Source: an uncultured Alphaproteobacteria bacterium
GTDB lineage: Bacteria; Bacteroidota; Ignavibacteria; OLB7
Length of the DNA: 64,000 bases
Assembly (NCBI GenBank): GCA_964462535.1
Contig: CAYWXV010000012.1
Location: 16,601-80,600 of the forward strand
Direction: 5' to 3'
The translations under genes and the position numbers were made by a program. Below are positions 1-17,720 of this stretch, in pieces; position 1 is the first letter of the stretch; each line of letters begins with the position of its first letter. The notes beneath the pieces were generated by a model. That model searched no databases, had not been told where the DNA came from, and saw only the letters and a list, made by a program, of their open reading frames with translations.

Positions 1-519
1 GGCGTTCGTCATCCTCCCGATCTTGATGTTGTTGAAGAAACCGTCAGCGCCATAGAAGAGGAGTCTCTTAATTGCAGGACGGAGCGTCACGCGCTCGAGC
101 ACCGCGCTCAATGGAATGCCAGTCCAGTACGCGTTTCCCATGAACCCGGTCGGCGTTGTCTTCAAAGGACTCTCAAGAATGCACTGGATGGTTTTCAGGA
201 TGGTAACCTCCCTGTCCCTAAGCGCCATCAGATCGTCGAACGTGATCGTCGCCAGTTCGGTCGGCGTTGGTGGAGCGACCAGGTCGGTGATGCGAAGTCG
301 CCACTCGGATTCCGTCAACGACGGTCGCGTCCAGCCACTGATGCTTCCCTCACCACCATTCTGCACAAAGAAGGCATCGGCAGGAGTAATAAACGGTGCT
401 TCGGAACTTCCGAGAGGTGTGACAGTGAAGTCTTCGCACCCGCCAAGGAGTGACGTGAACTGAACACCGACTATTCCTATGCCCGACACCTTAAGAAATG
501 TTCTTCGATCGAGGCTCAC
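1..519 (-). CDS. Tat-exported lipoprotein, molybdopterin-dependent oxidoreductase of the sulfite oxidase family (runs off the window edge)
   Basis: Not in the ORF track; translated by hand from GTG at 519 with GAGGAG upstream. It reads MSLDRRTFLKVSGIGIVGVQFTSLLGGC (twin-Arg plus lipobox), then ...TILKTIQCILES...GNAYWTGIPLSAVLE...FYGADGF, which carries the Mo-ligating Cys and the GNAxWxGxPL motif. The frame is open to base 1. Confidence 0.8.
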   Translation of the reverse strand, partial: MSLDRRTFLKVSGIGIVGVQFTSLLGGCEDFTVTPLGSSEAPFITPADAFFVQNGGEGSISGWTRPSLTESEWRLRITDLVAPPTPTELATITFDDLMALRDREVTILKTIQCILESPLKTTPTGFMGNAYWTGIPLSAVLERVTLRPAIKRLLFYGADGFFNNIKIGRMTNA

Positions 520-535
520 TCTTTTGCACTCCTCT

Positions 536-1480
536 TCATTCGTTCCCGAAGACCGTGCCCTCCCAGGCAACACCGATCGAGAGATCGAAGCTGTTGCTGG
601 CCTTCCGGCCGTACGGGGTGAACGCCGCGTCGACACTGAGTGACACCCCGTCAATCGCTCTCACGATTACTCCACCTCCAACCTTCACGTACTGCTGCGT
701 CTCCGGCGGATGCTCGACATCGAAATCGTTGTCGTCGGTTCGCGTGGAGAAGAGGGACTGCCCAACTGCATGAAGCAGAAGGCGATCGCCGATTGTGTAG
801 CCAGCTTCCACATTGGCGAAGATCTCGTCCGCATAGTCCGGAGCGAACGGGCGCGTCTCGTTCTTCAAACGGGAAGGAAAGATCCCCGTCCGACCGCGAT
901 ACCCGATCGAACCCGTCGCGTAGGCAGGGAGAGGATAGAAGGAGATGCCGTAGTTCCCCGCAACCTCAATGTTGAGATTCCCCGATCCGAGCGGTGGTGT
1001 TAGATCTCGGCTGTATCCCGTGGGAAGCGTTACGCCGAGCGTTGCCGACACCACCTGCTGATCAAACGAAGAGAGGAGATATCGTCCGGCCACGTAAATG
1101 TCGCCGAGTCCCTCGACCTCCTTCCGCTCCACGGGGGAGGTGATTACAACTCGCTTGAACGCAGCACTCCCGACCAGGGTCAGGTCTCGGAGCAGACCAT
1201 ACTCGGCATAGAGGAAGAGACTCCTTTCGGCGATCGGGTAGTTGCGGACTGTGAACGGAGGATTGTCGGTGGGATACTTCTCGGCTCCGTCGAATCGGTA
1301 GACCGTGTTCGCCGACGACGTCCCATACGTGAGCTTGGCATACAGCTTGAACAGCTCCTGCACCCAGCCTCCTGCACGCGCTGTGGCCGGGAGGGCTCCC
1401 AGAAGAAGCGCCAGTGCCAGAACGTGTAAGGACCGCCTACGACGGCGTCGCTTAGGGCTCGCCCAGTGGAACGTGGTCAT
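536..1480 (-). CDS. Putative outer-membrane beta-barrel protein
   Basis: Signal peptide ending ATARA-GGW, many amphipathic alternating strands, and a terminal strand DLSIGVAWEG. The ORF track starts at 1531; ATG at 1480 is preferred. It stops 17 bp before the Mo-enzyme start. Confidence 0.55.
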   Translation of the reverse strand: MTTFHWASPKRRRRRRSLHVLALALLLGALPATARAGGWVQELFKLYAKLTYGTSSANTVYRFDGAEKYPTDNPPFTVRNYPIAERSLFLYAEYGLLRDLTLVGSAAFKRVVITSPVERKEVEGLGDIYVAGRYLLSSFDQQVVSATLGVTLPTGYSRDLTPPLGSGNLNIEVAGNYGISFYPLPAYATGSIGYRGRTGIFPSRLKNETRPFAPDYADEIFANVEAGYTIGDRLLLHAVGQSLFSTRTDDNDFDVEHPPETQQYVKVGGGVIVRAIDGVSLSVDAAFTPYGRKASNSFDLSIGVAWEGTVFGNE

Positions 1481-1561
1481 GCGAGAGGGGAAAACGTCGA
1501 TACGATGCTGTTCCATGTAAGACCGATCCACCCGTCATGCTGTCGCAGCAAAGGGGGCGCC

Positions 1562-3958
1562 CTAAATATTTCGCTCGTAGATGCGGTACGTCCGGTAAGC
1601 CGACGCATTCATCATCTCGGCGGCACGGTTCATCATCATATTATCCTCCAGCACCCACGACGCCTCGCCAACCGGGCACCCCTTGACGACGGCCCGTTCG
1701 ATGATCTCGCGATACAGCAGGGCATCGATCGCCTTCCCATGGTACTCAGGGATAACGCCAAGGATGATGATGCGGAGCTGGTTGATGGCCTTCTTGTTGG
1801 TCATCAGATTCGTGATCGCCGTTGGCAGATTGAGTGGGCCGGAGGGGATTGACTTCCCGGCCTTGAAGGCCTGATTCACATCGGGGACGGCAAGGGCGAA
1901 GCCTACAGTCTTCCCATCCTGCTCGGCGAAGAGAACAAGATCCGGATCAATAACCTGTTTCAGCTCGCGGGCCATCATGTCCATCTCTTCGTCGGTCATC
2001 GGGACAAATCCCCAGTTCGGCTGCCAGGCTCGGTTGTAGATGGCCTTGATTCGTTCGACCTCGGGTCCGAACTGCTTCATCGAGAGGCTCCGCACTGTGG
2101 CACCCGTCCGTGCCCGGATCAAGTCCGTTACACGGACGAGCTTGTCCGTCAGCGCATCGGGATAGCAGAGGCGCCACGCGTAGAGGTCCTTTGCCTTACT
2201 GAAGCCGGCTTTCTCGATCAGCGTGTTATAGTACTCGGGATTGTACGGCATCAGGAACGTGGGCGGGCCGTCGAACCCTTTGAGGAGCATGCCAACCTCG
2301 TCGTTCATCGACGGGGAGACCGGTCCGCGCATGGCATTCATTCCCTCACGACGCAGCCACTCGGCCGCTGCGTTGAGAAGAGTGTTCGCCACGTCCTGAT
2401 CATTGATGGATTCAAAGAATCCGAAGAACCCGACGCGATCGCTGTGTATTGCGTTGTGCCCTTCGTTCACGATTGCAGCGATACGCCCAACCGGCGTTCC
2501 ATTCCGTTCGGCGATAAAGAGCTGAATGCGCGCGTGATGGTAGAACGGATTCTTGTCTGTATCAAGCAGACGCATCCGGTCCATTTCAATCGGCGGCACC
2601 CAGTTTGGGTCGTCGCGATGGAGCTTCCAGGAGAGGCGGATGAACTGGAGCTTCCCCTTTCGCCCATCGACAGTGCGCACGCTTACATCGCCTGTTGTGG
2701 GAAGAGGAGCTGAAGCTTCGTCACTGTCAGCCTTCTGCTCCGCAGCAGTGGCCGGCGTGTCGCGGTCGAGTAGTCCCATCTCCGTTCCGATATCCTGGAA
2801 GAGTTCCAGAATGCGATCGAGATGGCTCTTCTCGTGTGTCGCCATGACGGACGTTCTCATCATCTGCATTCCCTGCATGACACCAGGCGAGATGAAGGCG
2901 TTAACGAAAACACCCGCGTCGAAGAGTCGTCGCCAGAAGATGAACGTGAGGGTGTCGTCGCCAATGATGACGGGTACGATTCCGGTCTTTGATTCGATGA
3001 TTCGGAAGCCCATGTCAACGAATCCCTTCCGGAGATAGTCGGCATTCCAGATCAGCTTGTCGATGAGATGCGGTTCATCCCGCATGATCCGAAGAGCGGT
3101 GAGGGCAGCTGCAACCGAGGCCGGTGTCGGTGAAGCCGAGAAGATCAGGGCCGGTGAGATGTGCTTGATGTAGTTGATCACCCGCTCGGCGCCGACGACC
3201 CATCCTCCAAGCGACGCAAGCGACTTTGAGAAGGTCCCCATCGTCAGGTCGACATCCGCGTCGAGTCCGAAGTAGCTGGCGGTTCCACGCCCCCCCTTTC
3301 CGATAACACCCAGGGCGTGAGCGTCATCCACCATCAGCCGCGCCCCATACTTCTTCGCGATCGTGTTCATCGATGGGAGGTCGACGATCTCGCCCGAGGT
3401 TGAGAATACTCCGTCGGTAACGATGAGCTTCCCTGCGTCTTTCGGCAGACGGGCGACCTGACGTTCAAGGTCGTCCATATCGCCATGCTTGTAGCGAACA
3501 ACGTCACCAAACGCTCCCTTTGCCATCAGTGTACCGGCGACAATGCAGGCGTGGTTATCCTTGTCGCTGATGACGTAGTCACCCCGCTGCACCAATGTCG
3601 GAATGATCCCCTGGGCGGTCTGGTAGCCCGTCGAAAAGAGGAGACATGCCTCCGTCCCCATGAAGTCGGCAAGCTCCTCCTCCATTTCTTCGTGCAGACG
3701 GACCGTACCCGTCAGGTAGCGCGACCCGGAGCATCCGGTACCGAACTTCTCGGTCGCCTTGATCGCCGCCTCCTTGACACGTGGATCGGCAGTAAGGCCT
3801 AGATAGTTATTCGACCCCCCCATGATCACCTCGCGCCCCTCAATGCGGACCACCGGCCCCTCGTTCTCCTCGATCGCCCGGAAGTACGGATAGTACCCTG
3901 CTTCCTTCACATCATCGGCGCGCGTGAATTCAAGACACTTCTGAAACAGTTCTGCCAA
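1562..3958 (-). CDS. spt: Serine palmitoyltransferase (AOS/class II PLP) fused to a bacterial ceramide synthase-like GNAT domain
   Basis: N-terminal half: [38 protein letters not shown] and the PLP-Lys motif GTFSKS. C-terminal half: [43 protein letters not shown] and [10 protein letters not shown] short acidic/Ala linker joins them. TTG at 3958 has AGGAG upstream; the ORF extends to GTG at 4027. Confidence 0.8.
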
Positions 3959-4081
3959 GGACGGATCTCCTGCGTTGCTGAGTTCGTTCGCTTTCTCCCC
4001 GAATACCACAGGAACCGCACCGCTCACCGGGGAGAAGCGCCGAAGATAGTAATGGAAGGATTGTTGGATTGTATGAGATGG

Positions 4082-4840
4082 CTACTGCGACACGCGCATC
4101 AGTTCCTCGACACGCATGACGTCCTCTGGTGTGTCAACAGAGTGCCCTGCGTACTCCGTGCGGACGACCCGCATTTCCAACCCCAACTCGAGGAGCCTCA
4201 ACTGCTCAAGCTGTTCCGCTGTTTCCAGTGACGAGGGAGGGGCGGCGACGAACGCTCTCAGCGCGTCCGGACGGTATGCGTAAATGCCAATGTGGCGATG
4301 GTAGAGCGTTGCTGTGCTCCACTCCTCCGGTGGCAGGTCGCGCATGCACGGGATAGGCGACCGAGAGAAGTAGAGGGGGACGTCGCCGTCTCGGAGGACC
4401 ACCTTCACGACATTCGTGTCGAACAGGTCTCTGGACGATTCAATGCGGGAGACGGCAGTTACGCACGCGGCGCTCCCTCCAACGAGTTTCTCAACCAGTC
4501 GATTGAGCAGGTCAGGGTCGATCATCGGCTCGTCACCCTGCACATTTAGAACCGCAGAGACAGACCCGGCGGTGTCGGCAGATAGGAGTTCAAGCGCCTC
4601 GGCGATGCGATCCGAGCCGGAGGGGTGCTCGGTAGACGTCATGACCGCGTGGCCCCCGAACCGATGCACTGTCTCGAGGATGCTGGGATCATCCGTGGCC
4701 ACGACGACCCGGTCGACACGTGTTGCGGCGGTGACCCGCTCATACACGTGTTGGATCATAGGGCGCCCCAACAGCTCAACAAGCGGCTTCCCTGGGAGGC
4801 GACTCGAGGCGAATCTCGCCGGAATCAAAGCGACAACCAT
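4082..4840 (-). CDS. kdsB: 3-deoxy-manno-octulosonate cytidylyltransferase
   Basis: Motifs IPARFASSRLPGKPL, SGSDRIAEA, NVQGDEP, HIGIYAY and EQLEQLRLLE. Confidence 0.95.
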   Translation of the reverse strand: MVVALIPARFASSRLPGKPLVELLGRPMIQHVYERVTAATRVDRVVVATDDPSILETVHRFGGHAVMTSTEHPSGSDRIAEALELLSADTAGSVSAVLNVQGDEPMIDPDLLNRLVEKLVGGSAACVTAVSRIESSRDLFDTNVVKVVLRDGDVPLYFSRSPIPCMRDLPPEEWSTATLYHRHIGIYAYRPDALRAFVAAPPSSLETAEQLEQLRLLELGLEMRVVRTEYAGHSVDTPEDVMRVEELMRVSQ

Positions 4841-4846
4841 GACGGT

Positions 4847-5140
4847 CTATTCCAGCACCTTTGGGACGCTGAAGAATCCTTCAGTCTTCTTCGGTGCGTT
4901 CTGAAGCGCTTCAGCGGGCGTGAGGAGGGGACCCGGCTCGTCGTCTCGGAGGATATTGGTCGTCCCATGCACGAACTCCATGGGCTGAACATCCGTGACG
5001 TCGACCTGTTTCAACTGCTCGATGTATTCAACGATCTGGTTGAACTGCTGGGTAAACCCTGAGAGTTCGGTTTCCGAGAATCTGAGACGTGCCAGGCGCG
5101 CGACGTGGGCGACCTGTTCCGGTGTGATTGTGGTAGCCAT
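4847..5140 (-). CDS. gatC: Asp-tRNA(Asn)/Glu-tRNA(Gln) amidotransferase subunit C
   Basis: 97 aa from ATG 5140: ITPEQVAHVARLARL...LRDDE...ALQNAP...FFSVPKVLE. The upstream extension in the ORF track is non-coding. Confidence 0.95.
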   Translation of the reverse strand: MATTITPEQVAHVARLARLRFSETELSGFTQQFNQIVEYIEQLKQVDVTDVQPMEFVHGTTNILRDDEPGPLLTPAEALQNAPKKTEGFFSVPKVLE

Positions 5141-5201
5141 GAGCGGAATATACGATTGGGACCATCTATGCGATGAGCAACGGGTGCCGTCAAAAAAGGG
5201 C

Positions 5202-5278
5202 AAAAAAAAGCCGCGCAACTCACCCCTGATCGCGCGGCTAGGGTGAAGCGCCGAGGGTTGGTGCCCCAGCAACTTCAC
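5202..5278 (-). ncRNA. Putative small RNA copy 1 (two hairpins, the second an intrinsic terminator)
   Basis: UGAAG-UU-GCUGGGG[CACCAAC]CCUCGGC-G-CUUCA, linker CCCU, then AGCCGCGC..UCAGGGGUGA..GCGCGGCU followed by a U-tract. The 5' end is inferred. Confidence 0.7.
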
Positions 5279-5282
5279 ACTA

Positions 5283-5311
5283 CATACCAGCCCAACACCG
5301 AATTGGTTCCC
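5283..5311 (-). promoter_or_regulatory. Putative ECF-sigma promoter of sRNA copy 1
   Basis: GGGAACC-aattcggtgttgggct(16 nt)-GGTATG. Confidence 0.65.
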
Positions 5312-5391
5312 ATTCAGTGCACATTCGTTCGAATCGCAGTTTTCTCGCTGGAATTGGCGTTCCCGTTCTGGTGTGGTCGTTCTGGAAGGGC

Positions 5392-5471
5392 AAAAAAAGT
5401 GAGCTGCGCAACTCACCCCTGATCGCGCAGCTCGGGTTGAAGGCCAAGGGTTGGTGCCTCAGCAACTTCAC
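5392..5471 (-). ncRNA. Putative small RNA copy 2
   Basis: UGAAG-UU-GCUGAGG[CACCAAC]CCUUGGC-CUUCA, linker ACCC, then GAGCUGCGC..UCAGGGGUGA..GCGCAGCUC followed by ACU7. Confidence 0.7.
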
Positions 5472-5475
5472 ACTA

Positions 5476-5504
5476 CATACCAGCCGAAATGCAGATTGGT
5501 TCCC
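5476..5504 (-). promoter_or_regulatory. Putative ECF-sigma promoter of sRNA copy 2
   Basis: GGGAACC-aatctgcatttcggct(16 nt)-GGTATG. Confidence 0.65.
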
Positions 5505-5582
5505 ATTCACGAGCAACTGTTTGCAAATGGTTGAAAACTAAGCAGAATCGCATGTTCTTGGTTCGCGTGCGGTGGCACGGGC

Positions 5583-5662
5583 AAAAAAAATGAGCTGCGC
5601 AACTCACCCCTGATCGCGCAGCTCGGGTTGAAGGCCAAGGGTTGGTGCCTCAGCGGCTTCAC
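5583..5662 (-). ncRNA. Putative small RNA copy 3
   Basis: Same as copy 2 except UU->CC in the 5' arm bulge and the terminator tail (AU8). Confidence 0.7.
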
Positions 5663-5666
5663 AAGA

Positions 5667-5695
5667 CATACCAGGCGAGCCCGAGAATAGTTCCC
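5667..5695 (-). promoter_or_regulatory. Putative ECF-sigma promoter of sRNA copy 3
   Basis: GGGAACT-attctcgggctcgcct(16 nt)-GGTATG. Confidence 0.65.
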
Positions 5696-5769
5696 AATTG
5701 TCAGGTTTTTTCTCCGGGCGTCAGAATCTGCCAGAAATCGGCCGAATAATCCTGAACGAAGCTGCGTCG

Positions 5770-6759
5770 CTACCCGTATAGCCGCCCGACCTGCGCTCCG
5801 TATCCATTGTATGGGAGTGTCGGTACGCGCGTATCGGGACCGAGGAGGCGCTCCGTGGCTTGCGACCAGCGCGGGTGGGGAACCGTGGGATCGACGTTGG
5901 ACTGAAAGCTGTACTCATCGGGTGCCAGATCGTTCCAGAAGGTCGCGGGCCGATCTGCCACAAGTTCGATCCTCACAATCGACTTCGGGTTCTTGTACCC
6001 GTATTTCCACGGAACTATGATGCGCGCCGGCGCCCCATTCTGCTTTGGAAGCTCGTGCCCGTACATCCCCGTGACCAGCATTGCAAGCTCGTTCGTCGCC
6101 TCGTCAATCCTCATACCCTCGTAGTACGGCCACGTGTACCACGTCGCTCGGCGCTGGTTCGGCGCCTGCTCAGGTCGATCAAACGATATGAACCGAACGA
6201 AACGCGCGGAGGAGAGAGGCTCGGCCAGAGCCAGGACCTTTGCAAGCGGGATTCCCGTCCACGGCACCGTCATAGCCCAGGCTTCCACGCAGCGGAATCG
6301 ATAGACCCGTTCCTCCAGGGGAAGGAGCCGGACCAACTCATCTATCGTGAACTTCCGCGGTCGCGAAACCAGGCCCGTGATCTCCAGTTCCCATGGCCGG
6401 ATGCGGAAGTCGCCGACAAGGGACTTGACGACCTCCTTCTGTTCACTGAACTCGTAGAAATTGTTGTAGCTCGTCGCCAGGGCCTCGTCCGTCATCTCGC
6501 GGTCGACCACGTAGGCGTTGTTTCGCGGAGCGGGGTATAGGTCTCCGTTTGGGCTCGGGAGGTCGTCAATCGCGCGAAGCGAGTCCCGAAGATGCGTTCC
6601 TCCATCACCAGATGACGACGATGTGCAGCCCAGCAGTCCGAAGGCCAGCGTCCCCAGGCCGACGCTCTTCAGGAACCCTCGGCGGTTGATGTACGTCTCC
6701 TCCGGCGTTACCATGCGCTCAGGGATGTGCCAGTCGGGTCGAAGAATGATGTTCGCCAT
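5770..6759 (-). CDS. msrP: Protein-methionine-sulfoxide reductase catalytic subunit (YedY/MsrP), Tat lipoprotein
   Basis: NRRGFLK Tat motif, LLGC lipobox, SYNNFYEF, YRFRCVEAW, PWKYGYK and YSFQSNVDP.VPHPRWSQATER. Confidence 0.95.
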   Translation of the reverse strand: MANIILRPDWHIPERMVTPEETYINRRGFLKSVGLGTLAFGLLGCTSSSSGDGGTHLRDSLRAIDDLPSPNGDLYPAPRNNAYVVDREMTDEALATSYNNFYEFSEQKEVVKSLVGDFRIRPWELEITGLVSRPRKFTIDELVRLLPLEERVYRFRCVEAWAMTVPWTGIPLAKVLALAEPLSSARFVRFISFDRPEQAPNQRRATWYTWPYYEGMRIDEATNELAMLVTGMYGHELPKQNGAPARIIVPWKYGYKNPKSIVRIELVADRPATFWNDLAPDEYSFQSNVDPTVPHPRWSQATERLLGPDTRVPTLPYNGYGAQVGRLYG

Positions 6760-6945
6760 TGTCTCGTGTATCGGTTCTGATTTTCATCACTGATAGAGAG
6801 CGGTAGAGACGCTGTTGCGTAACTTCCCGCCGCTTTTTGAAGATCGAAGGCCGCATCACAGCCAGGTTGGGTCCGCCACCTTCGATTCCCCTTCCATTTG
6901 ATCGAGTAATCCCGGCGGTACGCGGGATTATTCCAGTTGCACTGC

Positions 6946-8025
6946 ATGAAGTGGCTAATCGGTTTGGTAATTCTGGCGGCGCTTGCCATCGCCGGAATCT
7001 GGATATCGGGCGTCTTCAGGACTATTTCGGTCGTCGTCGCTCCACCTGAGCGACGCGAAGCGGTCAGGGTTATTTCGGTCCTCGGCTCGGTTCGGGCAGA
7101 ACAGATTGCACGCATCCGTACGGAGGTAGGCGGGGAGGTTGTCGGGCTCTTTGTGCGGCAGGGGGAAGAGGTTCGGGACGGCGAGCCCGTGATGGATCTC
7201 AAGGTCGAGGAGCAGAAGAGTGCCGTCGTCGAAACCCAGGCGCGTCTGCGCGAGGCCCAGGTAACCGTCCAGGAGCGAAAGTTGAATCTCGACAGGGAAA
7301 CCGAGCTCCTTGCACAGGGGGCCTCAACGCAGCAGGCGGTGGACGACGCGCGCGCGGCCTACAATCGAGCCGTTGCGGCGGCCAATTCCGTTCGCGCAAT
7401 TCTCAGCAGCCGTAAGTCCGTTACAGGCAAAGGGAAGATCGTTGCGCCAATCTCCGGCGTCGTCACCCAGGTCAACGTCAACGTTGGCGACATCGTCCCA
7501 CCAAACGTCGAGGCCATAACGATCTTGGATCCCGCCTCCTTCCGGGTGGTGGCTGATGTAGACGAGCTCGACATAACACGCATTCGTCCGGGACAGGAGG
7601 CGATCGTCTCGTTTGATGCGATGCCGAAGAGCAGATATCGAGCCCGTGTCGACAGGATAATTCCGCAGGCGGACGAAGTGACCAAAACGCTCCCCGTTAT
7701 TCTCCGGCTTACCGATGGCGTCTTGAACCTTTCCGAAGGGTTGACAGCGAACATCAACATTGTTCAGGAACGCCATCCGAACGCGCTGACGATCCCGCGC
7801 CGGGCGATACTGGATGAGCGAGGTAACAAGGCACGTCTGTTCGTTCTGACGGAAAGAAATACCCTGCAGCTCGATACCGTTGTCCTCGGCGTTCGCGGTG
7901 ATGACTACGTAGAGATTCTGGACGGCCTGAACGAGGAGGCTCGCGTCGTTCTCGATCCCGATCCGCTTTGGAAGGGGGGTGAGGAAGTGGAGGTGGACCG
8001 TAAGGCAACAGCCAGACGGCAATAG
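6946..8025 (+). CDS. Efflux RND/MacA-type periplasmic adaptor subunit
   Basis: N-terminal anchor, V.G.V..L.V.QG..V lipoyl motif, coiled-coil hairpin, APISGVVT..NVNVG, and IP..AI. Confidence 0.9.
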   Translation: MKWLIGLVILAALAIAGIWISGVFRTISVVVAPPERREAVRVISVLGSVRAEQIARIRTEVGGEVVGLFVRQGEEVRDGEPVMDLKVEEQKSAVVETQARLREAQVTVQERKLNLDRETELLAQGASTQQAVDDARAAYNRAVAAANSVRAILSSRKSVTGKGKIVAPISGVVTQVNVNVGDIVPPNVEAITILDPASFRVVADVDELDITRIRPGQEAIVSFDAMPKSRYRARVDRIIPQADEVTKTLPVILRLTDGVLNLSEGLTANINIVQERHPNALTIPRRAILDERGNKARLFVLTERNTLQLDTVVLGVRGDDYVEILDGLNEEARVVLDPDPLWKGGEEVEVDRKATARRQ

Positions 8026-16976: not shown

Positions 16977-17159
16977 GTACGTCGTACCTGCTCGTATTCG
17001 GTAGTAGGTCGGAACTGTTCCTTGACGTTCCATGGGCCGCTCGTCGATATTCCATAGAGCCAGTCCTTCATTTGCATTCCCCTACTGCTCACACCAGCCC
17101 AACCGTAACTTGCCTGCGACTCCGGTGTCCCTGGCTGGTCGCCCCGTCCCTCTGTGTAC

Positions 17160-17720
17160 ATGCCCCTGCACTACGATCGACATACCGACGAAGAACTCTT
17201 CCGCCTTCTGAGTGATGGCGACAAAGATGCGTTCGTGGAGCTCTACGGCCGATATCGGTCCCGTATCTATGCCTACGTCCTCAGAATGCTTGGGGATCGC
17301 GACCGAGCAAACGATGCGTTTCAAGAGACATTCGTCCGGATATACAACTCAGCGCGTGAATCCGGACGGATCGTTGCCAACGTCTCAGCCTACTTCTTCA
17401 CATCCGCGAGGAACGTCTGCCTGAACGCGCTCCGCGATGCGAAACCGACCACCCCGGTCGAAGACTACCATGAGATCGTATTTCAACCTAGCCACGAGAA
17501 CCTGGAGCTGGCTGAACTGGTGAAGCGATCTCTCGAACTCCTTCCTGAACATCTCCGTGAGGCATTTGTACTTCGCGAGTACGACGGGCTGAGCTATCAG
17601 GAAATTTCTGACGTCACCGGACAGGGACTGTCCGCCGTCAAAGTGCACATCTTCAGGGCGAAGGAACGTTTGCGGAAAATACTGACGCCCTATCTGGAGG
17701 AGGCCCGTCCATCGCGGTAG
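17160..17720 (+). CDS. ECF sigma-70 family RNA polymerase sigma factor
   Basis: DKDAFVELYGRY, DAFQETF, YFFTSARNVCLN and REAFVLREYDGLSYQEIS...VKVHIFRAKERLR. Confidence 0.93.
   Translation: MPLHYDRHTDEELFRLLSDGDKDAFVELYGRYRSRIYAYVLRMLGDRDRANDAFQETFVRIYNSARESGRIVANVSAYFFTSARNVCLNALRDAKPTTPVEDYHEIVFQPSHENLELAELVKRSLELLPEHLREAFVLREYDGLSYQEISDVTGQGLSAVKVHIFRAKERLRKILTPYLEEARPSR

Follow-up and report, generated by a model that had tools for sequence, protein, structure and literature searches.

Tandem paralogous genes for a predicted small RNA between msrP and gatC in Kapaibacteria-like Bacteroidota

Tandem sibling small RNAs (sRNAs) are an established arrangement in bacteria, with PrrF1/2, OmrA/B, AbcR1/2, and the csRNAs as described examples (PMC4211561). 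In Bacteroides thetaiotaomicron, the multicopy and Hfq-independent FopS/GibS sRNAs work with an RRM-1 protein, and dosage effects of the co-expressed paralogues are discussed by the authors (PMC11697453); among paralogous sRNA families of the phylum that also holds the locus described here, FopS/GibS alone is well studied. This study concerns a stretch of 64,000 nucleotides (nt) from an uncultured bacterium (contig CAYWXV010000012.1, positions 16,601 to 80,600; hereafter the window), and within it an array of three repeats between msrP and gatC. The repeats are best read as three paralogous genes for a non-coding RNA of ~78-80 nt, with transcription, 5' ends, and size all being predictions.

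Three cassettes and the RNA family they belong to

The array consists of three direct repeats on the minus strand (5195-5312, 5388-5505, and 5579-5696) with a conserved unit of ~118 nt. Their starts are spaced by 193 and 191 nt, Tandem Repeats Finder returned a period of 191 with 80% matches, and the spacers of ~73 nt between the cassettes could not be aligned with one another. This agrees with an original prediction, made from the letters of the window, that had described three minus-strand copies at a 190/191-bp period with unrelated spacers of ~70 bp. Read along the minus strand, each cassette starts with an A/T-rich tract, followed by GGGAAC, 18 variable bases, and GTAT; a predicted 5' hairpin begins 7-8 nt past GTAT and is joined by a linker of 4-5 nt to a GC-rich hairpin, which has AUCAGGGGUGAGUU as its loop and ends in 7-8 U. 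With a promoter-like motif and a terminator of its own, each gene looks like a complete unit of transcription.

Cassette 3, which is proximal to msrP (5583..5695), carries GGGAAC at 5695-5690 and GTAT at 5671-5668, and its predicted RNA runs from ~5662 to 5583. Sequence and fold place its CACCAAC loop at 5647-5641, GGGGTGA at 5610-5604, and the U tail at 5590-5583, and the covariance model introduced below matched 5580-5668 with 94.8 bits. Cassette 2 (5392..5504; 92.6 bits) has GGGAAC at 5504-5499, GTAT at 5480-5477, a predicted RNA from ~5471 to 5392, CACCAAC at 5456-5450, GGGGTGA at 5419-5413, and the U tail at 5398-5392. The same parts in cassette 1, the gatC-proximal and older copy (5202..5311; 76.8 bits), are found at 5311-5306 (GGGAAC), 5287-5284 (GTAT), 5263-5257 (CACCAAC), 5226-5220 (GGGGTGA), and 5209-5202 (U tail), with a predicted RNA from ~5278 to 5202. 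Across the window, GATCAGGGGTGAGTTGCGC occurs three times against 0.02 expected, and GGGAAC-N18-GTAT three times against ~0.07 expected; the covariance model, run with filters off, returned the three copies of the array and no fourth copy in the 64 kb. No small open reading frame (ORF) is shared across the cassettes: ATG stands directly before TAG in copies 1 and 2 (GGTATGTAGTG), as had been pointed out originally, and the RNA bodies of two related arrays (loci L002 and L006) are without any ATG.

All three copies fold as the original prediction had drawn them, namely into a 5' hairpin (UGAAG/CUUCA base, 7-bp upper stem, CACCAAC loop), a linker that is C-rich in the window, and a terminator hairpin capped by UCA-GGGG-UGA and followed by 7-8 U; a 2-nt bulge lies between the base and the upper stem of the 5' hairpin. 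Minimum free energies of the minus-strand RNAs were -34 to -41 kcal/mol, corresponding to z-scores of -3.2 to -3.7 against dinucleotide shuffles, none of 200 of which folded as well, while the plus strand reached merely -1.3 to -1.9. Both these z-scores and the frequent G-U pairs point to the minus strand.

Both helices are supported by covariation. An independent MAFFT alignment of 18 non-identical copies from the window and its relatives had 87.8% of the cells in the two hairpins paired, compared with 33-44% after the partners were slid by 1-3 columns, and 12 of 26 pairs showed compensatory changes on both sides; the observed values were reached by 0 of 500 shuffles. RNAalifold, run on this alignment with no structure supplied, recovered the upper stem of the first hairpin with its CACCAAC loop as well as the terminator stem, with compensatory changes in 11 of 18 pairs. 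The model-fitted alignment of all 21 copies, which is biased towards the model by construction, was 92% paired with 11 compensatory pairs. Variants of the upper stem include GCUGAGG/CCUUGGC, GUCAAGG/CCUUGAC, and GCCGGGA/UCCCGGU, those of the terminator stem GCUGCGC/GCGCAGC, GCCAUGC/GCAUGGC, and GCCGUGC/GCACGGC, and loop-proximal terminator pairs change from A-U to G-C. The compensatory changes that had been named for the window itself are all present: the terminator occurs both as GCUGCGC/GCGCAGC and as GCCGCGC/GCGCGGC, and the upper 5' stem of copy 1 has A-U replaced by G-U and G-U replaced by G-C. Terminator stems of 11-14 bp, 97% paired over 18-21 copies and followed by 7-9 U, fit an intrinsic (Rho-independent) terminator. 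The exception is the second copy at locus L012 (L012b; 5857-5947, minus strand), where the U tract is degraded (CUUCUUUGUAUG) and the lower stem is absent while the top pair is compensated (GGGA...UCCC); this copy may read through into a downstream gene for a GDPD-like lipoprotein, or it may be decaying.

None of the 4227 models of Rfam 15 matched the window at gathering score, and no match at E<=1 was obtained at the sRNA sites of eight related loci, in line with the original statement that no Rfam family was recognised. Sub-threshold matches in 5100-5800 all had E>1, with Pseudomon-1 at 15.6 of 50 bits, mir-2162 at 15.2 of 65, and suhB at 13.7 of 41. The top one, Pseudomon-1 (ErsA, RF01719; E=2.4), was dismissed as noise arising from the terminator, together with a match to mmgR. 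Chlorobi-1 RNA (RF01696), an sRNA of a neighbouring phylum with two hairpins and a terminator, was not listed in the array region even at E<=10, nor in the relatives at E<=1. FopS has been deposited in Rfam according to its authors (PMC11697453), and membership of the FopS/GibS family was not found, as no Rfam model matched the window region or the eight related loci.

When 185,579 species, each represented by one genome, were scanned for the exact pattern, multi-copy matches were returned only in two Kapaibacteria-like metagenome-assembled genomes (MAGs), both with arrays between msrP and gatC. One, labelled Bacteroidetes bacterium SZAS-92, has three copies; the other, Candidatus Kapaibacterium sp., had five exact matches, and a looser pattern combined with the covariance model brought these to six. 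Four single matches in unrelated phyla were without any other feature of the family and were discarded as chance. Scanning metagenome contigs added two loci, L008 with one copy and L012 with two. The covariance model, R1, was built from 15 copies; on relatives' contigs, chosen by an encoded MsrP 64-80% identical to that of the window, it found single copies 3' of msrP in L013/14, L015/16, L019/20, L021, L025, and L026 (63-88 bits). L023, L024, and L027 are without the sRNA, and in these a gene for an extracytoplasmic function (ECF) sigma factor, not gatC, comes after msrP. In total, 21 copies were found at 11 distinct loci, all in Kapaibacteria-like Bacteroidota, with 1, 2, 3, or 6 copies per locus (three in the window and L002, six in L006, two in L012). 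Where MsrP relatives bear a name, it is Candidatus Kapaibacterium or Kapabacteria, a lineage that NCBI places in Bacteroidota, and as far as sampled the predicted family is confined to this group. The window, L002, L006, and L012 each have at least two homologous sRNA genes, as is required of sibling sRNAs. The original proposal of a sibling-sRNA family in this lineage is thereby supported, with copy numbers from 1 to 6 and covariation in both helices. Literature searches returned no paper in which small RNAs and either Kapabacteria or Ignavibacteria are both mentioned. The RNA is a new, previously uncatalogued family of a known kind, that of tandem sibling sRNAs.

Within the window, the RNA cores of copies 2 and 3 are 97% identical, while copy 1 shares 83-86% with either. 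From linker through terminator, its 3' half, copy 1 matches the single copy in the closest relative, L013, without a difference (79% identity for the whole core), so the triplication is recent and specific to this lineage. The two other large arrays combine two subtypes at a period of 145 nt, in the order A-B-A in L002 (1870-2300) and A-B-B-A-B-A in L006 (6410-7260); the two genomes do not differ in A, while their B copies are 92-97% identical. Since the subtypes are common to both, duplication predates the split of these species, with both subtypes having been kept. In these arrays the spacer is repeated within the unit (CGAAGGCTCGCAAAGAAGTTT...), unlike the unrelated spacers of the window.

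Tandem copies whose number varies between relatives could also stem from a non-functional or selfish intergenic repeat without an RNA product, be it similar to repetitive extragenic palindromes (REP) or to miniature inverted-repeat transposable elements (MITE), or derived from duplicated msrP terminators. The terminator-like remnants that are all that is left 3' of msrP at L017 and L022 would also suit such an origin. This explanation is barely credible, though, given that only one locus was found per 64-kb window even when the model was run without its filters, that the position is kept across lineages with 64-80% MsrP identity, and that two helices are maintained by compensatory changes next to invariant promoter blocks. 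A phage or mobile origin was rejected: 64 viral contig matches to the pattern in IMG/VR yielded none that was confirmed by the covariance model, and neither terminal inverted repeats nor target-site duplications were seen at the repeats of the window.

Promoter motif, conserved loops, and mode of action

In 19 of 21 copies neither GGGAAC nor GTAT varies, and the two are always 18 nt apart; the bases in between are poorly conserved, and the motif is preceded by an A/T-rich tract. GGGAAC-N18-GTAT is therefore, judged by its sequence, the signature of a two-block promoter. In these 19 copies GGGAAC conforms to the GGAAC-type -35 element of ECF promoters, and it is documented as such in the sigma-C promoter of C. 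glutamicum (GGGAACT/CGACTA; PMC5483222) and in the promoter of group ECF29 (GGGAAC/GCATCCAA; PMC6180224). The downstream block is (R)GTAT after 18 nt, compared with CGT/GTC at 16-17 nt for ECF promoters. As GTAT is not a textbook ECF -10 element, the putative sRNA promoter is called only ECF-like, on account of its ECF-type -35 block. A scan for sigma-70 promoters found none for the cassettes, and a sigma-54 reading of TGGGAAC...TGCA was rejected after inspection of copies 1 and 3, as it fits copy 2 only. Of the original view that each copy is a complete promoter-RNA-terminator cassette, the terminator and a two-block motif were both recovered, with the amendment that this motif has an ECF-type -35 block and is not sigma-70-like.

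The two copies that lack the motif are found at L019 (5030-5070) and L026 (4030-4070), where GGGAAC-N18-GTAT has been lost and TATATTTG stands at the equivalent place. TATATTTG fits the TAnnTTTG box of Bacteroidetes sigma-A, a housekeeping-type element. The conserved RNA body has, by all appearances, been given another promoter, and the replacement suggests that the RNA body is the selected unit and that its control can be rewired. The window holds only six TAnnTTTG sites, several of them near ORF starts, which is too few to settle the type of housekeeping promoter used by this genome.

None of the 21 copies departs from CACCAAC or GGGGUGA (GGGGTGA in DNA), while the surrounding stems vary. 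The linker differs in nearly every lineage (ACCC, AGUUC, AUUCC, CAUUG, ACACG, and AUUGG), and the idea of a second seed in a CAACCC linker, put forward originally, was rejected for this reason. In the lineages of L019, L025, and L026, the inner UCA/UGA helix of the terminator loop has been lost and GGGGUGAG retained, indicating that this loop is conserved as sequence and not for its pairing.

Taken together, I consider it fairly probable that the array comprises three paralogous sibling sRNA genes that are independently transcribed by an alternative sigma factor and act via their invariant loops. An ECF-type sigma factor would drive transcription, so that the RNA is made upon a stress signal, and the sRNA is probably a stress-controlled regulator. 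Oxidative or envelope stress would be the best guess for this signal, based on the conserved position beside msrP (periplasmic methionine-sulfoxide repair) and on the ECF sigma gene that replaces the sRNA and gatC in sister lineages, a link that is circumstantial. The 5' hairpin would display the CACCAAC loop as a seed for pairing in trans with mRNAs, with GGGGUGA in the terminator loop as a second contact; tandem amplification would raise dosage and the speed of the response, and paralogue subtypes would permit some divergence.

Several observations weigh against this explanation. The -10-like GTAT is unlike the CGT/GTC of many ECF promoters, and the 64-kb window has no further GGGAAC-N18-GTAT sites, so no regulon is visible. 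The sole ECF sigma factor gene of the window (17154-17720, plus strand; Sigma70_r2 and r4_2) has a different motif upstream, CGTAAC-N17-GTC (17100-17153), and there is no support for it as the regulator of the sRNAs. Counts of the loop complement show no enrichment in the window (17 observed, 19 expected), and duplex predictions for neighbouring genes yielded no interaction with a conserved position or an outstanding energy: RNAduplex values of either loop with the start regions of msrP, gatC, kdsB, the aminotransferase gene, and the MFP gene at seven loci were -8 to -18 kcal/mol everywhere. Finally, total invariance of both loops is equally expected of a protein-binding site. As a separate observation, CGTAAC-N17-GTC resembles TGTTAC-N16-GTCTG, which in L023 and L024 stands upstream of the ECF sigma gene located after msrP.

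The invariance of both loops, together with the want of complementary mRNA sites in the window count and the neighbour-gene duplexes, leads to a rival in which the RNA binds or titrates a protein, such as an RRM-1 protein, or the ribosome via both loops, and in which the array raises titration capacity. Two loops without a single change over 21 copies while stems covary, and GGGGUGAG kept as primary sequence without its inner helix in L019, L025, and L026, would both be accounted for, and the Bacteroides RRM-1 protein RbpB is known to bind multicopy sRNAs (PMC11697453). However, no candidate protein partner was identified here, and seed loops of base-pairing sRNAs are typically invariant as well. 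Each RNA moreover has a single copy of each motif, unlike sponges of the CsrB/RsmZ type, which are multi-site. On balance this rival is possible but unlikely.

A more specific version is a long shot: the two loops might together be recognised, as a surface of two parts, by the translation machinery or by a global RNA-binding protein, with GGGGUGA as a Shine-Dalgarno mimic and with a titrating RNA released in an ECF-driven burst under stress. The GGGGUGA loop could form seven pairs, one of them G-U, with the canonical 3' tail of 16S rRNA, UCACCUCC, a generic tail and not the 16S of the host itself; it is this pairing that suggests the mimicry. CACC in the first loop is complementary to GGUG in the second, and a kissing contact between them is possible. 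If titration were true, up to six genes would deliver a ribosome- or protein-titrating RNA in a phylum that makes little use of Shine-Dalgarno pairing.

Neighbouring genes

The gene order in the window is msrP, the sRNA array, gatC, kdsB, and an aminotransferase-GNAT fusion, all on the minus strand. The upstream neighbour is an msrP-like molybdopterin oxidoreductase gene (5770..6759; Pfam Oxidored_molyb, E=8e-34), the homologues of which are named MsrP, and the downstream neighbour is gatC (4847..5140; Pfam GatC, E=1e-21), which overlaps the start of kdsB (4082-4840; Pfam CTP_transf_3, E=2e-53). The original placement of the array between msrP and envelope-lipid genes thus holds on the msrP side, while on the other side gatC comes first and the envelope genes only after it. 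The fusion downstream of kdsB (1562-4027; 821 aa) joins a class I/II aminotransferase (KBL/serine-palmitoyltransferase-like) to a C-terminal GNAT domain; it is kept in all syntenic relatives and may be a candidate enzyme of envelope-lipid biosynthesis. The order msrP, array, gatC is common to L013, L016, L019, L021, L025, L026, L002, and L006.

Such a position invites a cis-acting explanation, in which stacked promoters and leaky or conditional terminators form an attenuator that sets gatC-kdsB expression without a free RNA. The array is directly upstream of gatC and co-oriented with it in 9 of 11 loci, and in the window the last sRNA terminator ends only 61 nt before the gatC ATG. However, the RNA of L008 and of L012 lies away from gatC among unrelated genes, arguing that the sRNA is independent of its neighbours. 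The distance to gatC also varies from ~60 to 270 nt across loci over an unconserved stretch, the terminators are strong (11-14 bp stems, 7-9 U) with no conserved antiterminator pairing seen, and upstream copies of an array could not control gatC through several terminators. A conserved GTTGTAtATT / GTTGTAGATTG box immediately before gatC further suggests that gatC has a promoter of its own, and the attenuator is quite improbable. The box precedes the gatC ATG by 5-8 nt in the window (5141-5160), L013, and L021, and by ~35 nt in L002 and L006; if it is the gatC promoter, as it may be, the gatC mRNA of the window would be leaderless. At L008, four tandem paralogues for a secreted cysteine-rich protein of 140-190 aa (19-2206, plus strand; signal peptide MNRRTLL...) lie beside the sRNA, with the gene for an AraC-family regulator on its other side.

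Returning to the favoured reading of free sRNAs, the array may also serve its upstream neighbour. A terminator scan found none between the msrP stop codon and cassette 3, and at L017 (5190-5235) and L022 (4135-4175) only a terminator hairpin is left 3' of msrP (GAAGCCGUACGGC... and GAAGCUGCACGG..., respectively), with the 5' hairpin gone. The stem of the leftover hairpin in L017/18 and L022 resembles the terminator of the sRNA family, and it looks like an sRNA relic retained as the msrP terminator. With no intervening terminator in the window and relic terminators persisting 3' of msrP elsewhere, the first sRNA terminator probably ends the msrP mRNA too.

A few further observations were made around msrP. 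No msrQ partner was seen beside it in the window or in any of the relatives L013-L027. The adjoining ORF (6708-7202, minus strand) has no Pfam match, and a divergent MFP-MacB-OEP efflux operon is the actual neighbour on the upstream side. GGGAAGTTACGCAAC is conserved ~60 nt upstream of msrP in the window (6815-6830), L013, and L021, and a GGGAATAA-like box is found 85-145 nt upstream in six other relatives (L019, L021-L024, and L026 being named); both may be control elements of msrP. A promoter of the sRNA type upstream of msrP was not established, as the GGGAATAA-like boxes have inconsistent spacing to any GTA.

Comparison with described small RNA families

The sRNA family would give the uncultured Kapaibacteria lineage its first candidate riboregulator. 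It has a clean structure that covaries. Its natural copy range of 0 to 6 is suited to studying how sRNA gene dosage evolves, its promoter motif could define an alternative-sigma regulon, and its two absolutely conserved loops are testable, while the housekeeping-type promoter of L019 and L026 would be a natural experiment in rewired sRNA control. No general concept is changed, as tandem sibling sRNAs and sRNAs driven by stress sigma factors are both well known.

Among the latter, MicA, RybB, and MicL under E. coli sigma-E and ErsA under Pseudomonas AlgU are ECF-driven sRNAs with a GGAAC-type -35 element; they are single-copy genes and make up the repressing arm of the envelope-stress regulon. 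The Kapaibacteria family shares this -35 type with them and differs in its GTAT -10 block and its multiple copies. LhrC1-5 of Listeria are multi-copy sRNAs with seeds in loops, including the terminator loop. The csRNAs of Streptococcus exist in 2-6 copies that are partly tandem (PMC4211561). Both groups are like the family described here in comprising up to 5-6 small RNAs, each gene having the same dedicated promoter and a terminator of its own. Their promoters depend on stress regulators, namely the two-component response regulators CiaR and LisR, in contrast to the ECF-like -35/-10 blocks found here, and both groups use C/U-rich anti-Shine-Dalgarno seeds; they come from another phylum and have no homology to the Kapaibacteria family.

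PrrF1/F2 of Pseudomonas aeruginosa, OmrA/B of E. coli, and AbcR1/2 of Rhizobiales are likewise paralogous genes of ~80-110 nt that lie head-to-tail in one intergenic region, and as in the Kapaibacteria family their arrangement and number, having arisen by local duplication, vary between related species (PMC4211561). They differ in having two copies, in being Hfq-dependent, and in belonging to Proteobacteria, whereas up to six copies are found here in Bacteroidota. While their seed is a single-stranded 5' region, the conserved unpaired parts of the Kapaibacteria RNA are its two hairpin loops, and there is no relationship in sequence or in Rfam.

Within the same phylum, FopS has 14 copies spread across multiple loci, transcribed from canonical sigma-ABfr promoters, and its RNA has a single-stranded 5' seed (R1) followed by a terminator only (PMC11697453). 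The Kapaibacteria family, in contrast, is made up of tandem copies with a GGGAAC/GTAT promoter (19 of 21) and a covarying 5' hairpin that carries a conserved loop.

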